This document shows positions 2,862 through 36,484 of a DNA stretch of 64,000 bases, piece after piece. Origin of the DNA: Escherichia phage vB_EcoM_WL-3; sequence record MT968995.1. The stretch is one strand, 5' to 3'. The position numbers were made by a program, and so were the translations under genes. Every line of letters begins with the position of its first letter. The stretch's first letter is position 1. The notes under the pieces were generated by a model. It was not told the DNA's origin and searched no databases. It saw only the letters and a program-made list of their open reading frames with translations.

Positions 2862-3347
2862 TTATTTTATGTAATATTTATTTAAAAACTTTCTAGCTTG
2901 AGTATGGCTAACATTTATAGCATTTGCATAATTTTTAATAAAACCTCGTTCATCCATATTAAAACTTTCTAATATTTTTAATCGTCTAGCTATCTCATCT
3001 TGACTTAAAGTACTTGCATTATTTTTAGAAATTTTTTCTAAGGACTGTACTGAGTGTTTTCGACCATTAAAATTAAAATTTTTAGATTTTGGAGGAAATC
3101 TATCATTTAGTCTCGCATCTTTTGTATTTTGATTATTAGTTGCGCAATATATGTTATTTAATGAGTATGGTCCTTTATCACCAAAACGGCACATACAGTA
3201 TTCATGACCCTTTCTTCCACGCTTATCATAATTTCCCGTTGATTTCCACCAATGCAACCACTCATCAAAAGTTAAATTCCATTCAATGTTTCTACGTATA
3301 GCAGAATTCCGCTGAGAAATATATTTTGCATAATCTTCTTTCATCAC
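2862..3347 (-). CDS. free-standing HNH-like endonuclease candidate inside the tRNA cluster (position of T4 segB)
   Basis: 161-aa ORF; block GHEYCMCRFGDKGPYSLNNIYCATNNQN resembles phage His-Me-finger/HNH motifs; no GIY-YIG motif. Confidence 0.45.
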   Translation of the reverse strand: MMKEDYAKYISQRNSAIRRNIEWNLTFDEWLHWWKSTGNYDKRGRKGHEYCMCRFGDKGPYSLNNIYCATNNQNTKDARLNDRFPPKSKNFNFNGRKHSVQSLEKISKNNASTLSQDEIARRLKILESFNMDERGFIKNYANAINVSHTQARKFLNKYYIK

Positions 3348-4194: not shown

Positions 4195-4593
4195 TCAGCC
4201 TTCATCAACAATAGTGTGAGTATTAGCATTTACGATTTGCCACCAATCAAAGCGATTAGAATCCATCGGTTTGTTTTCATTTTCTTTGATAATGTCACGG
4301 AGTTCATCTTCAGAGAATGCTTTAGCGATTAAATCGGTATACCCACCACGTGGATAATAATTATCACCTGCAAACAAAAGGAAATTTACCTTCCCGGAAG
4401 GAACATACGCTTCCTTAGGATACTTGTTTCCTGCGTGGTCAACCACTTCAATATAACGGTAAGGAATATCGGTTCTTTCAACCCATTGCCATGCCGCCGC
4501 AGGGGAATCGAAAGCATCTACACCTAAACGATTATCTTCATCTTTAGACGGATTATTTTCGTAATCCGCATATACATAATATTCAACGTTCAT
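4195..4593 (-). CDS. hypothetical protein
   Basis: 132-aa ORF, ATG start overlapping upstream ORF stop. Confidence 0.5.
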   Translation of the reverse strand: MNVEYYVYADYENNPSKDEDNRLGVDAFDSPAAAWQWVERTDIPYRYIEVVDHAGNKYPKEAYVPSGKVNFLLFAGDNYYPRGGYTDLIAKAFSEDELRDIIKENENKPMDSNRFDWWQIVNANTHTIVDEG

Positions 4594-4778
4594 TATTCAC
4601 CTTTAGAAATTTTATCCATAACAATAGCAATTAAACCAATTAAAAATGCTACTACAAGTGAAAAAACATTTTCTGCCGTAGTCAATAATCCGCATATAAA
4701 TCCAACAAACATTGAAAAACTGAAAGCGGAAGCAGAAATTGCAATAGCAACATTTCGAATTAATTCACAACGTTTCAT
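4593..4778 (-). CDS. small predicted membrane protein
   Basis: 61 aa with two hydrophobic stretches (AIAISASAFSFSMFVGFICGLL, VFSLVVAFLIGLIAIV). Confidence 0.45.
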   Translation of the reverse strand: MKRCELIRNVAIAISASAFSFSMFVGFICGLLTTAENVFSLVVAFLIGLIAIVMDKISKGE

Positions 4779-4806
4779 TTTATTCTCCTCAGTAGTAGAT
4801 AGGGTA

Positions 4807-4836
4807 ATAGTATCACTACCCTATCTAAAAGTAAAC
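4807..4836 (-). promoter_or_regulatory. T4 early-type sigma70 promoter
   Basis: Minus strand GTTTAC, ~17-18 nt, TGaTACTAT; -10 sits in loop of 9-bp inverted repeat gatagggta/taccctatc (4798-4825). Confidence 0.5.
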
Positions 4837-5070
4837 TTATTTTTTACGAAAAATTGATTTATTTTCTGCTGCCCATTTTTCAATAACTGCAGCAGGACCA
4901 GTAACAACAATTTTATCACCGTAATCTTCTGCGGCGAGTTGACCGAAATTATCTAATGCATCACGAAGAACTCCATGAGGCATTTCACCCATTTTATCTT
5001 TCTTGCCAGTGTAAATAAACTCAACTTTTACATCAGCAGTTTCAGCAATAAATTCTTGGTAAGTTTTCAT
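4837..5070 (-). CDS. ipI: internal protein I-like capsid cargo protein with targeting signal
   Basis: Track ORF starts MEIKM; second ATG gives MKTYQEFIAE, the T4 IPI targeting signal as recalled; GGAAA 7 nt upstream. Confidence 0.5.
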   Translation of the reverse strand: MKTYQEFIAETADVKVEFIYTGKKDKMGEMPHGVLRDALDNFGQLAAEDYGDKIVVTGPAAVIEKWAAENKSIFRKK

Positions 5071-5104
5071 TTTGATTTCCATTTGGTTTTGTTTTGATAG
5101 GGTA

Positions 5105-5134
5105 ATAGTATCACAACTAAAACCCTATGTAAAC
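5105..5134 (-). promoter_or_regulatory. T4 early-type sigma70 promoter
   Basis: Minus strand cacaaagttGTTTACA, 17 nt, TGaTACTAT; AT-rich upstream; 7-bp inverted repeat atagggt/accctat spans the -10. Confidence 0.5.
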
Positions 5135-5146
5135 AACTTTGTGAAA

Positions 5147-5404
5147 TTATTTTAAATCTTCTAATCGTTTCTTCATCTTAGAACCATTTTTAGCAATTTC
5201 TCCTGCATCGGAGCATAATGCTAAAAGTGCTTTAACTTTAGTTTGGTCTCCTTTAAAAGATGAAGGATCGACCGCAGCAGCAAGTTCTTTAATACGAGAG
5301 AAAAGACGCTCAGCTTCAGCTAAAGCCATTCCAAGCTTTACTTCCATACCGTGGGAAGATTCAGTGATAGTAGTTTTTGTAGCAAACTCTTTGAAAGTTT
5401 TCAT
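5147..5404 (-). CDS. small protein with internal-protein-like targeting signal
   Basis: N-terminus MKTFKEFATK resembles the MKTY.EF motif; 85 aa. Confidence 0.45.
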   Translation of the reverse strand: MKTFKEFATKTTITESSHGMEVKLGMALAEAERLFSRIKELAAAVDPSSFKGDQTKVKALLALCSDAGEIAKNGSKMKKRLEDLK

Positions 5405-5435
5405 TTTTATTTTCCTAATTAATTTTGATGAGGTA

Positions 5436-5465
5436 ATAGTATCACTACCTCATCAGTATGTAAAC
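5436..5465 (-). promoter_or_regulatory. T4 early-type sigma70 promoter
   Basis: Minus strand cacaaagttGTTTACA, 17 nt, TGaTACTAT; 10-bp inverted repeat tgatgaggta/tacctcatca (5426-5455) brackets the -10. Confidence 0.5.
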
Positions 5466-5477
5466 AACTTTGTGAAA

Positions 5478-6162
<685 letters not shown>

Positions 6163-6163
<1 letters not shown>

Positions 6164-6888
6164 TATAGTACCTTTAGTGTATTTTTAATTTTAGAAAAAA
6201 GTTCTTCAAGAGAACCATCGTTTGTAATTACTAAATCGCCATCACGAATTGGCAATCCAGCTTCTGTAATATGTGTATCATTGGATTTTTGACCAGGACG
6301 AACTACATGAATTACTGTAGCACCCATCGCCCTAGCCGCATCCATTTCATGATCTTGACGGGTATCAGGAACGATATAATAATCATAACCTGAGTTAAAT
6401 TTATCAAGATAATCTAAAGCAAATAATTTTACCCAGTACATGCGGTCGAAGTTATTAACAATCAAATCCGTACCTAGGGCTTGCATCAGACGACGGACTG
6501 ACCATTGATCTTCAATATTATTTATAACGTCAATAATCTTGTTAAATGCTACGGAATTAACTGATTCTTGTCCTTCGTCATCAAAAACAAACACACCTTT
6601 AATTGGGCTTTTACCATTAAGATAGCAAAATGCTTGTTCCATAATCGTGATTACTTCTAATTTAGTTAGATTTAAATTAGTCTCACGATCATAGTCAATT
6701 CCTTCAAACTCTTTACGAGTTAAGCAAGGATAGTCGGTATTTGCTGCAAATACTCCCCATGCATAAGCCAATGCATCCTTAATAGGACCAGCAAGTTGGT
6801 ATTTAACTGCAGAATAATTGCTCATGATAAAATCAGCAGTAGTATCTTTTCCACTACGCTTTACACCGCTTAAAAAGATTAGTTTCAT
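6163..6888 (-). CDS. 1: gp1 deoxynucleoside monophosphate kinase
   Basis: 241 aa; P-loop GVKRSGKDT near N-terminus; synteny 57A-1-3-2-4. Confidence 0.8.
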
Positions 6889-34581: not shown

Positions 34582-35006
34582 TGCTTCTGATCCCTGAAAC
34601 TCATGAATTAGTTCTCGAGAATGTCGAAGCACTTATTCCTGAAGCACAGGGTCGCTTTGACGAATTGTCTTCTGCTTTAAATAAAGACGATATAAATACA
34701 ATTGTCGAGAATATGCTTGATGATGAAACTGATTTAGCAGTTGCATTAGCTTCTATTAATGAAAACATGCCGTTAAATGAATTCATTGTTAAGCACGTTT
34801 CAGCTCGTGGTGAAATTACACGTACTAAAGATCGCAAAACACGCGAACGTAATGCATTTCAAACCACTGGGCTGTCTAAAGCAAAACGTAGACAAATTGC
34901 TCGCAAAGCTACCAAAACGAAGATTGCCAATCCAGCAGGTCAATCTCGTGCTCAGCGTAAGCGTAAAAAAGCTCTTAAACGCCGTAAAGCATTAGGATTA
35001 AGCTAA
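34581..35006 (+). CDS. 68: gp68 prohead core protein
   Basis: 141 aa as in T4; basic C-terminus. Confidence 0.85.
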
Positions 35007-35644
35007 TGAATGAACCCCAATTACTAATTGAAACTTGGGGTCAACCTGGCGAAATTATTGATGGTGTGCCAATGCTCGAATCCCACGATGGAAAAGACTT
35101 AGGTTTAAAACCGGGTTTATACATCGAAGGAATATTCATGCAAGCAGAAGTCGTCAATAGAAATAAACGTCTTTATCCAAAACGCATATTAGAAAAAGCG
35201 GTAAAAGACTATATTAATGAGCAAGTTTTAACTAAACAAGCTCTCGGAGAATTAAATCATCCTCCACGCGCTAATGTTGACCCGATGCAAGCCGCTATCA
35301 TTATAGAAGATATGTGGTGGAAAGGAAATGACGTATACGGACGAGCTCGTGTTATTGAAGGTGACCATGGTCCTGGAGATAAATTAGCAGCTAATATTCG
35401 TGCCGGATGGATTCCAGGAGTTTCTTCTCGTGGATTAGGTTCATTGACTGACACAAATAAAGGTTATCGTATCGTAAACGAAGGATTCAAATTAACTGTA
35501 GGTGTTGATGCAGTATGGGGTCCAAGTGCTCCAGATGCATGGGTAACTCCTAAGGAAATTACCGAATCACAGACGGCGGAAGCCGATACAAGTGCCGATG
35601 ACGCCTATATGGCTCTCGCAGAGGCCATGAAAAAAGCGTTATAA
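35006..35644 (+). CDS. 21: gp21 prohead core protease
   Basis: 212 aa as in T4. Confidence 0.9.
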   Translation: MNEPQLLIETWGQPGEIIDGVPMLESHDGKDLGLKPGLYIEGIFMQAEVVNRNKRLYPKRILEKAVKDYINEQVLTKQALGELNHPPRANVDPMQAAIIIEDMWWKGNDVYGRARVIEGDHGPGDKLAANIRAGWIPGVSSRGLGSLTDTNKGYRIVNEGFKLTVGVDAVWGPSAPDAWVTPKEITESQTAEADTSADDAYMALAEAMKKAL

Positions 35645-35674: not shown

Positions 35675-36484
35675 ATGCTTAAAGAACAACTGATTGCTGA
35701 AGCGCAAAAAATTGATGCTTCCGTTGCTCTTGATAGTATTTTCGAATCAGTTAATATTTCTCCGGAAGCAAAAGAAACTTTCGGCACTGTATTCGAAGCT
35801 ACCGTCAAGCAGCACGCCGTTAAATTAGCTGAATCTCATATCGCTAAAATTGCTGAAAAAGCAGAAGAAGAAGTAGAAAAAAATAAAGAAGAAGCCGAAG
35901 AAAAAGCTGAGAAGAAAATCGCTGAGCAAGCTTCTAAATTCATCGACCATCTTGCGAAAGAATGGCTCGCTGAAAATAAATTAGCAGTTGATAAAGGCAT
36001 CAAAGCCGAACTGTTTGAATCCATGCTTGGTGGATTAAAAGAGCTCTTTGTTGAACACAACGTTGTTGTTCCAGAAGAATCAGTTGATGTTGTGGCTGAA
36101 ATGGAAGAAGAGCTGCAAGAACATAAAGAAGAATCAGCTCGTCTGTTCGAAGAACTCAATAAGCGTGACGCATATATCAATTATGTGCAGCGTGAAGTGG
36201 CATTGAGCGAAAGTACTAAAGATCTGACTGAGTCTCAAAAAGAAAAAGTCTCTGCTCTGGTCGAAGGTATGGATTATTCAGATGAATTCTCAAATAAATT
36301 GAGTGCCATCGTAGAAATGGTGAAGAAGTCTAATAAAGATGAAAGCACTATTACTGAGGGTATAAATACTCCTGATACTGAAGCAGCCGGACTAAATTTC
36401 GTCACTGAAGCTGTAGAAGATAAAGCTGCACCTGGTGCAGAAGATATTGTAAGTGTATATGCGAAAGTCGCATCTCGTTTCTAA
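35675..36484 (+). CDS. 22: gp22 prohead core scaffold protein
   Basis: 269 aa, Glu/Lys-rich helical. Confidence 0.9.
   Translation: MLKEQLIAEAQKIDASVALDSIFESVNISPEAKETFGTVFEATVKQHAVKLAESHIAKIAEKAEEEVEKNKEEAEEKAEKKIAEQASKFIDHLAKEWLAENKLAVDKGIKAELFESMLGGLKELFVEHNVVVPEESVDVVAEMEEELQEHKEESARLFEELNKRDAYINYVQREVALSESTKDLTESQKEKVSALVEGMDYSDEFSNKLSAIVEMVKKSNKDESTITEGINTPDTEAAGLNFVTEAVEDKAAPGAEDIVSVYAKVASRF

Follow-up and report, generated by a model that had tools for sequence, protein, structure and literature searches.

Two internal protein genes between 57B and tRNA.4

The DNA analysed here, 64,000 nucleotides (nt) of Escherichia phage vB_EcoM_WL-3 (MT968995.1; hereafter the window), contains at about 4300-6000 a run of minus-strand genes that includes two small adjacent open reading frames (ORFs), ORF-A and ORF-B (Table 1). 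A first-pass annotation of the letters had described them as genes of cargo proteins directed into the phage head and injected. Both ORFs were found where it had placed them, and both encode a capsid-targeting signal with an L/I-x-E site for the prohead protease gp21. On the identities given below, ORF-A is Ip6, the bas37_0260 protein of phage Bas37, and ORF-B, the second and until then unassigned cargo protein, is Ip5. They occupy ipI, a locus that is hypervariable among T-even phages, here in its T6-type version, with the gene order gene 1, 57A, 57B, ip5, ip6, tRNA.4, tRNA.3, tRNA.2 and tRNA cluster. The order 57B-ip5-ip6-tRNA.4 is that of T6 and Bas37; T4 has ipI in that gap.

Positions 4770-5500 of the window are identical to Bas37 (KarlGJung, MZ501089) over 731/731 nt, and in that record the 77-amino-acid (aa) gene bas37_0260 and the 85-aa gene bas37_0261 both lie between 57B and tRNA.4. 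The ORF-A product is identical to bas37_0260 at 77/77 aa and to T6 Ip6 at 76/77; its family is labelled ip6 or ipVI in VR7, PST and GiZh, and it matches phrog_8111 (E 1.2e-52). The ORF-B product is identical at 85/85 aa to bas37_0261, T6 Ip5 and RB15 Ip5, and its exact sequence stands in UniRef as 'Ip5' (Q38630_BPT6); Ip5 is also encoded by T2. The T6 record annotates the same gene pair as Ip6 and Ip5, with 'replaces ipI' in the Ip5 entry, and the pair is annotated ip5 and ip6 in some database records. Gene and neighbours showed no difference between ORF-A and T6 Ip6 or bas37_0260, nor did gene and position, directly after 57B, between ORF-B and Ip5 of T6 and RB15. For ip6, the conserved signal at the 5070 start argues for this start over the upstream in-frame ATG. 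In the 81-aa form that begins at the latter, the signal would be buried, and one such member even goes under the name 'translation initiation factor IF-3' in one source.

The locus is already known: both genes, whose names reportedly date from Repoila et al. in 1994, occur in hundreds of genomes, and a role of Ip6 has been reported. A tblastn search located Ip6 in 245 and Ip5 in 496 phage records. Several Tequatrovirus genomes match the 1.5 kb around the locus at 100% identity, and 186 records cover most of that stretch. Ip6 gave dN/dS values of 0.16-0.51, and Ip5 differs from its T2 counterpart by 11 synonymous and 0 nonsynonymous changes; with dN/dS below 1, purifying selection acts on both genes. 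Among 5.8 billion proteins, profile and single-sequence searches returned 17 clusters for Ip6 and 5 for Ip5, every source-named one from a T-even-type phage, and neither these searches nor HMMER found relatives of either family outside T4-like phages. With Ip6 as the query, HMMER run over the full set of 1.84 billion representatives returned 6 matches. The HMMER matches P0018 and P0021, both NHL-repeat proteins, were judged spurious because their scores were inflated by 5-20 repeated weak matches. A Pfam search gave no match for Ip5 or Ip6, and Rfam and tRNA scans returned the tRNA cluster only, with nothing within the ip region.

Table 1. Features of the ip locus and related genes in the window (a slash marks the end of a signal or a predicted gp21 cut)
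Feature	Position	Strand	Description
ip6 (ORF-A)	4837-5070	minus	77-aa internal protein precursor, N-terminus MKTYQEFIAETADVKVEF
ip6 codons 1-10	5041-5070	minus	signal MKTYQEFIAE, predicted gp21 cut after Glu10 (IAE/T)
alternative ip6 start	in-frame ATG at 5082 (5071-5082)	minus	4 codons upstream, MEIKMKTYQ..., 81-aa form in some records
ip5 (ORF-B)	5147-5404	minus	85-aa internal protein precursor, N-terminus MKTFKEFATKTTITESSHG
ip5 codons 1-15	5360-5404	minus	IPI-type propeptide MKTFKEFATKTTITE, predicted gp21 cut after Glu15 (ITE/S)
cassette upstream of ip5	5423-5493	minus	promoter 5436-5464, TTTACA-N17-TACTAT; hairpin 5426-5455, -17.4 kcal/mol, z -4.4
cassette upstream of ip6	5092-5162	minus	promoter 5105-5133, TTTACA-N17-TACTAT; hairpin 5097-5128, -13.7 kcal/mol, z -2.9
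third cassette, downstream of ip6 and upstream of tRNA.4	4794-4864	minus	promoter-like TTTACT-N17-TACTAT 4807-4835; hairpin 4796-4827, -18.5 kcal/mol, z -5.1
57B, left flank	5478-5936	minus	Acb1-family anti-CBASS phosphodiesterase, Pfam PF23474, E 2.7e-60
tRNA.4, right flank	4593-4778	minus	61-aa predicted membrane protein, phrog_1692; Trna.4 in fFiEco06, T4, T6
187-aa ORF	1159-1722	minus	MKTYAEFLTE/AAKLPSE..., same capsid-targeting signal, phrog_2280
gene 21, prohead protease	35006-35644	plus	Pfam PF03420, E 1.5e-111; 211/212 identical to T4 gp21
gene 22, scaffolding core protein	35675-36484	plus	Pfam PF25623 T4_CASP, E 4.7e-90

Capsid-targeting signals and predicted processing

Ip6 has exactly the signal of T4 IPII and IPIII (both MKTYQEFIAE/A). 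The first-pass annotation had given both ORFs a signal of roughly 10 residues; this holds for ORF-A, whereas ORF-B begins with a 15-residue propeptide of the longer T4 IPI type. It closes in the same ITE (residues 13-15) as the T4 IPI propeptide, MKTFKEFTSTTTPVSTITE/ATL, where ITE occupies residues 17-19. In both cases the likeness to the T4 internal proteins ends where the signal ends. Propeptides of 10-19 residues send proteins to the prohead core, residues 4 and 7 being important for targeting and residues 8 and 10 for processing, and gp21 cuts after Glu in L/I-X-E (PMC9026906). Ip6 has Y4, F7, I8 and E10 at these positions, and the targeting residues F4 and F7 are present in Ip5. Translated in all six frames, the 64-kb window contains the pattern MK[TS][YFW].[ED][FWY] 3 times (0.02 times in shuffles, maximum 1), and all 3 matches stand at the head of real minus-strand ORFs.

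Among 39 non-redundant ORFs with unrelated mature parts, the signal keeps an aromatic residue at position 4, Phe at position 7 and the L/I-x-E site. Avoidance of internal L/I-x-E sites in these mature parts would be a trace of exposure to gp21; 20 sites were counted, against 26.4 expected (P ~0.10). No such site occurs in mature T4 IPI*, IPII* and IPIII* or in mature Ip6. The first helix of Ip5 has two such motifs, LAE30 and IKE40, which a relative in slur03 (47% identical) keeps as LVE and ISE; Ip5 may be cleaved at more than one site. Ip5 also shares the peptide MALAEA (residues 25-30, window 5315-5332) with gp21, where it lies near the C-terminus (residues 202-207, 35609-35626), and gp21 contains ITES, which resembles the end of the Ip5 signal. 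The genes of gp21, gp22 and the portal protein are all encoded in the window, and the presence of gp21 and gp22 makes packaging and cleavage of Ip5 and Ip6 plausible.

Promoter/stem-loop cassettes and exchange at the locus

Each ORF had been credited with its own early-type promoter, and this was borne out: both promoters carry an extended-10 TG, and their TTTACA-N17-TACTAT matches the consensus TTTACW-N17-TAYWAT of the PeSL elements of phages PST and T4 (PMC4122927). The consensus occurs only 6 times in the window, always on the minus strand, and 3 of these sites are at the ip locus; a generic promoter scan of the window was not enriched (6 found vs 5.7 expected). The three cassettes of Table 1 form a 71-nt repeat family (D1; reference copy 5092-5162). 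Their hairpin overlaps the -10 element in each copy, and the stems at 4796-4827 and 5426-5455 differ by paired substitutions that keep the base pairing in both. The copy upstream of ip5 overlaps the last codons of 57B and the copy upstream of ip6 those of ip5, with DLK-stop at both. In sequence, the cassettes match PeSL elements as described for T4-like phages (Arbiol 2010, PMC2839356; Comeau 2014, PMC4122927), that is, an early-promoter consensus overlapped by a stable stem-loop and repeated between variable ORFs, and the three copies flank each gene.

The variability of this locus among T-even phages, also part of the first-pass annotation, was confirmed by comparison across genomes. In 36 related IMG/VR loci the gap between 57B and tRNA.4 holds 0-5 signal-bearing ORFs with many unrelated mature families. 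Homology to T4 (95%) covers 57B, the promoter/stem-loop and the first 12 codons of ip5, ends at 5370 and picks up again in the element before tRNA.4. With RB15 and T2, the homology ends about 12 codons into ip6, in RB15 at 5035, just past the signal-coding segment. Within the window, ip5 and ip6 themselves share 77% identity over their first 44 nt (repeat D2). The breakpoints and the varied content of the gap indicate that the mature domains are exchangeable, with the signal-coding segment and the PeSL on either side as handles for recombination. In contrast to the PeSL elements as described, the locus has a second conserved handle, the signal-coding segment, at the other breakpoint. According to Comeau 2014, Repoila et al. 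made similar observations at the T4 IP locus in 1994 (PMC4122927). An Ip6 homologue on an IMG/VR contig (L007, 4869-5102) has the hybrid signal MKTFKEFIAE/SS rather than MKTYQEFIAE/TA, which fits recombination within the signal-coding segment.

Ip6 and McrBC restriction

A function is available for Ip6 through its identity to bas37_0260, which lies at the ipI locus of Bas37 and has an N-terminal packaging signal. According to the HIDEN-SEQ preprint (bioRxiv 10.1101/2025.11.20.689424), disruption of bas37_0260 causes a fitness defect on E. coli K-12 BW25113 and none on K-12 without mcrA, mcrBC and mrr, and a clean deletion renders the phage specifically sensitive to McrBC. ORF-A is thus the reported anti-McrBC factor. 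The name Ip6 does not appear in the preprint; it is in this analysis that the 1994 name and the 2025 function are connected. The anti-defence reading of the first-pass annotation was relevant as regards restriction, but it had singled out the second cargo protein, whereas the reported role belongs to the first.

T2 and T6 leave about one quarter of their hydroxymethylcytosine (hmC) unglucosylated. Bas37 carries a glucosyltransferase of the T2/T6 beta-alpha type, as stated in the same text (bioRxiv 10.1101/2025.11.20.689424), and incompletely glucosylated hmC would explain why an inhibitor of McrBC is needed. Ip6 may bind McrB or McrC directly. The same host enzyme is the target of T4 Arn, an early-expressed DNA mimic; Arn is synthesised once infection has begun and is not known as a head protein with the signal.

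Predicted mature Ip6 comprises residues 11-77 (7.4 kDa, isoelectric point (pI) 6.5) and its predicted fold is ferredoxin-like (AF2 pLDDT 86.8). A fold comparison against BFVD returned Ip6 itself as the sole match. As modelled, the folds of Ip6 and Ip5 are generic, and neither model reveals function.

A 63-aa protein with an Ip6 domain that lacks the signal was found at L045 3001-3192 (also L046 and L047; Logan contigs SRR21291451, SRR21291448 and SRR21291449). It is 60% identical to the mature Ip6 domain and starts MKAQFIYIGKKD, aligning to Ip6 residue 15. In-frame stops lie upstream of its start. The gene has an early-type promoter of its own and a good ribosome-binding site, and its locus is a different one, beside DUF5417 and MotA-like genes of a more distant T4-like phage. 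This relative suggests that the signal is a portable tag gained by, or lost from, an early accessory protein.

Ip5 and the T4 internal proteins

Predicted mature Ip5 (residues 16-85, about 7.5 kDa, pI 9.2) is basic, with 13 K+R in 70 aa, like T4 IPI*, IPII* and IPIII*. Its predicted fold is a two-helix hairpin of moderate confidence (pLDDT 71) with generic coiled-coil matches only, and the slur03 relative shares its conserved C-terminal helix. The locus, the promoter/stem-loop region upstream of ip5 (95% identical), the propeptide type (MKTFKEF...ITE) and the mature size (70-76 aa) are like those of T4 IPI*, which is injected and inhibits GmrSD, a type IV restriction enzyme of E. coli CT596; the role of an injected factor against type IV restriction would also be shared at this locus. 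The mature sequences, however, are unrelated to IPI*. IPI* consists of two beta sheets flanked by helices (PMC3012670), in contrast to the predicted helical hairpin of Ip5 and ferredoxin-like sandwich of Ip6, and in place of GmrSD the target is McrBC as reported for Ip6, with none known for Ip5. T4 IPII and IPIII, whose signal Ip6 shares, each block a single restriction system, GmrSD-ECOR21 and GmrSD-ECOR17, respectively (PMC12373910); they differ in being encoded at another ip locus (denV-e) and in their unrelated mature domains.

Neighbouring genes and a third signal-bearing ORF

The left flank, 57B, stands as in T4, T6 and Bas37, and its Acb1-family product places known or likely counter-defence genes side by side. 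Despite the Acb1 match, 57B is often labelled 'RNA ligase' or 'hypothetical' in records. The 187-aa ORF at 1159-1722 has a basic predicted mature part (pI 9.5) with no internal L/I-x-E site. It occurs in 164 phage records, and the 25 sampled call it 'hypothetical protein' or 'Phage protein' or leave it unannotated, and none uses 'internal protein'. At this position T4 carries e.6, an unrelated gene. The 187-aa ORF probably encodes an unannotated internal protein. Elsewhere, the tRNA cluster is split between tRNA-Met and tRNA-Ser by a 161-aa minus-strand ORF (2862-3347, phrog_16521). The homing endonuclease gene segB lies within the tRNA cluster of T4, and Bas37 has a putative one beside its cluster, neither at exactly this spot.

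Discussion

We propose that the two cassettes between 57B and tRNA.4 have three parts each: a variable mature domain, the signal-coding segment before it and a promoter/stem-loop element. On the model of T4 IPI, IPII and IPIII, each precursor would dock through its signal on gp22, the scaffolding core of the prohead, and gp21 would then cleave after Glu15 in Ip5 and Glu10 in Ip6. The mature proteins of about 7.5 kDa would stay in the head, enter the cell with the DNA and be present before any phage gene expression. Ip6 neutralises the modification-dependent restriction enzyme McrBC, as the genetics of the identical gene bas37_0260 in Bas37 show, and would meet it before the DNA is cut. Ip5 is most likely a similarly narrow injected inhibitor of another DNA-targeting defence. 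New combinations would arise by recombination in the signal-coding and promoter/stem-loop segments rather than by point mutation of mature domains. We consider this account as a whole, a T6-type ipI locus of injected cargo in which Ip6 acts against McrBC, Ip5 is likely a narrow inhibitor and cassettes are shuffled, to be highly probable.

Several observations weigh against it. Packaging and cleavage of Ip5 and Ip6 rest on analogy, and the literature searched yielded no virion proteomics or injection data for either protein. The T4 internal proteins are basic, whereas mature Ip6 has a pI close to neutral. Neither ip5 nor ip6 has a T4 late promoter (TATAAATA) directly upstream, the nearest on the minus strand being at 6519-6526 within gene 1, and late expression would therefore need read-through. 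The signal-less relative implies that the Ip6 domain can work without packaging. The McrBC role of Ip6 comes from a preprint, and the result is genetic only. Finally, Silas et al. 2025 assigned to each of T4 Ip1, Ip2 and Ip3 one GmrSD type IV enzyme that it blocks; against the further GmrSD variants that they tested, ip4-10 did not act reproducibly (PMC12373910). T2 and T6 are restricted by GmrSD-ECOR17 and GmrSD-ECOR21 (PMC12373910) although T6 has both Ip5 and Ip6 and T2 has Ip5; at native dose, Ip5 and Ip6 would thus fail to neutralise these two enzymes. Novelty, which the first-pass annotation had suggested for the anti-defence idea, has to be given up: it is already the standard view that T-even internal proteins are diverse defence proteins sharing only the capsid-targeting sequence (PMC3012670), and ip4-10 had already been challenged with GmrSD variants.

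The own early-type promoters without an adjacent late one, the signal-less Ip6 domain behind an early-type promoter with in-frame stops upstream, and the breaks of homology in signal-coding DNA would all suit proteins that act mainly in the cytoplasm, newly made early in infection. The signal would then be a recombination handle or a vestige, and packaging would be irrelevant. This is improbable in our view: the residues mapped as functional are kept across the 39 non-redundant ORFs despite their unrelated mature parts, and an enzyme that cuts incoming DNA is best countered by an inhibitor made in advance. Moreover, the region upstream of ip5 is nearly that of T4 ipI, whose product is incorporated into the prohead core and then ejected into the host (PMC9026906), mature IPI* being described as injected with the DNA (PMC3012670). 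Less probable still is that the McrBC sensitivity of the bas37_0260 deletion is indirect, through a polar effect on tRNA.4 or downstream genes or through DNA modification, Ip6 itself not being the inhibitor. The described data, in the preprint's available text, are loss-of-function genetics only, and the third cassette immediately downstream of ip6 could be disturbed by a deletion. However, tRNA.4 has its own promoter-like element, the phenotype as given in that text is specific for McrBC among the three K-12 type IV systems, and a direct inhibitor is the simplest reading given the precedent of IPI, IPII and IPIII.

For Ip5, a role as basic filler without a specific host target, balancing DNA charge or aiding core assembly as was once proposed for T4 IPII and IPIII, would agree with its basic mature part, with the plain helical hairpin predicted for it, and with the lack of a GmrSD target in published tests; the available text of the HIDEN-SEQ preprint mentions no phenotype for bas37_0261, which is Ip5. 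Such a role nevertheless appears unlikely. Ip5 is tightly conserved, both against T2 and in the C-terminal helix kept in slur03, its cassette-wise presence and absence is the pattern of an accessory function under specific selection, and all three T4 internal proteins once deemed fillers now have specific GmrSD targets (PMC12373910). A specific inhibitor being the preferred reading, we tentatively make a narrower proposal, somewhat less probable than its negation: Ip5, and possibly also the product of the ORF at 1159-1722, would be injected and would inhibit, with a narrow spectrum, a modification-dependent defence with which no phage inhibitor has so far been paired. Candidate targets would be a GmrSD subtype inactive in or absent from the published panel, or a Brig-type DNA glycosylase acting on hmC or glucosyl-hmC. 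The signal would then be a portable tag by which early accessory proteins are delivered in advance, as the signal-less Ip6 relative suggests.

This analysis brings together Ip6, named in 1994, and the anti-McrBC factor bas37_0260 of 2025 as the same protein, carried by T6, and gives the unassigned second cargo protein its identity as Ip5. The leads that remain are the target of Ip5 and the unannotated signal-bearing ORF at 1159-1722. Of all phage factors, injected internal proteins encounter the restriction enzymes of the host first, and every known example stops just one type IV system. These traits make internal proteins useful host-range markers for therapeutic T4-like phages.

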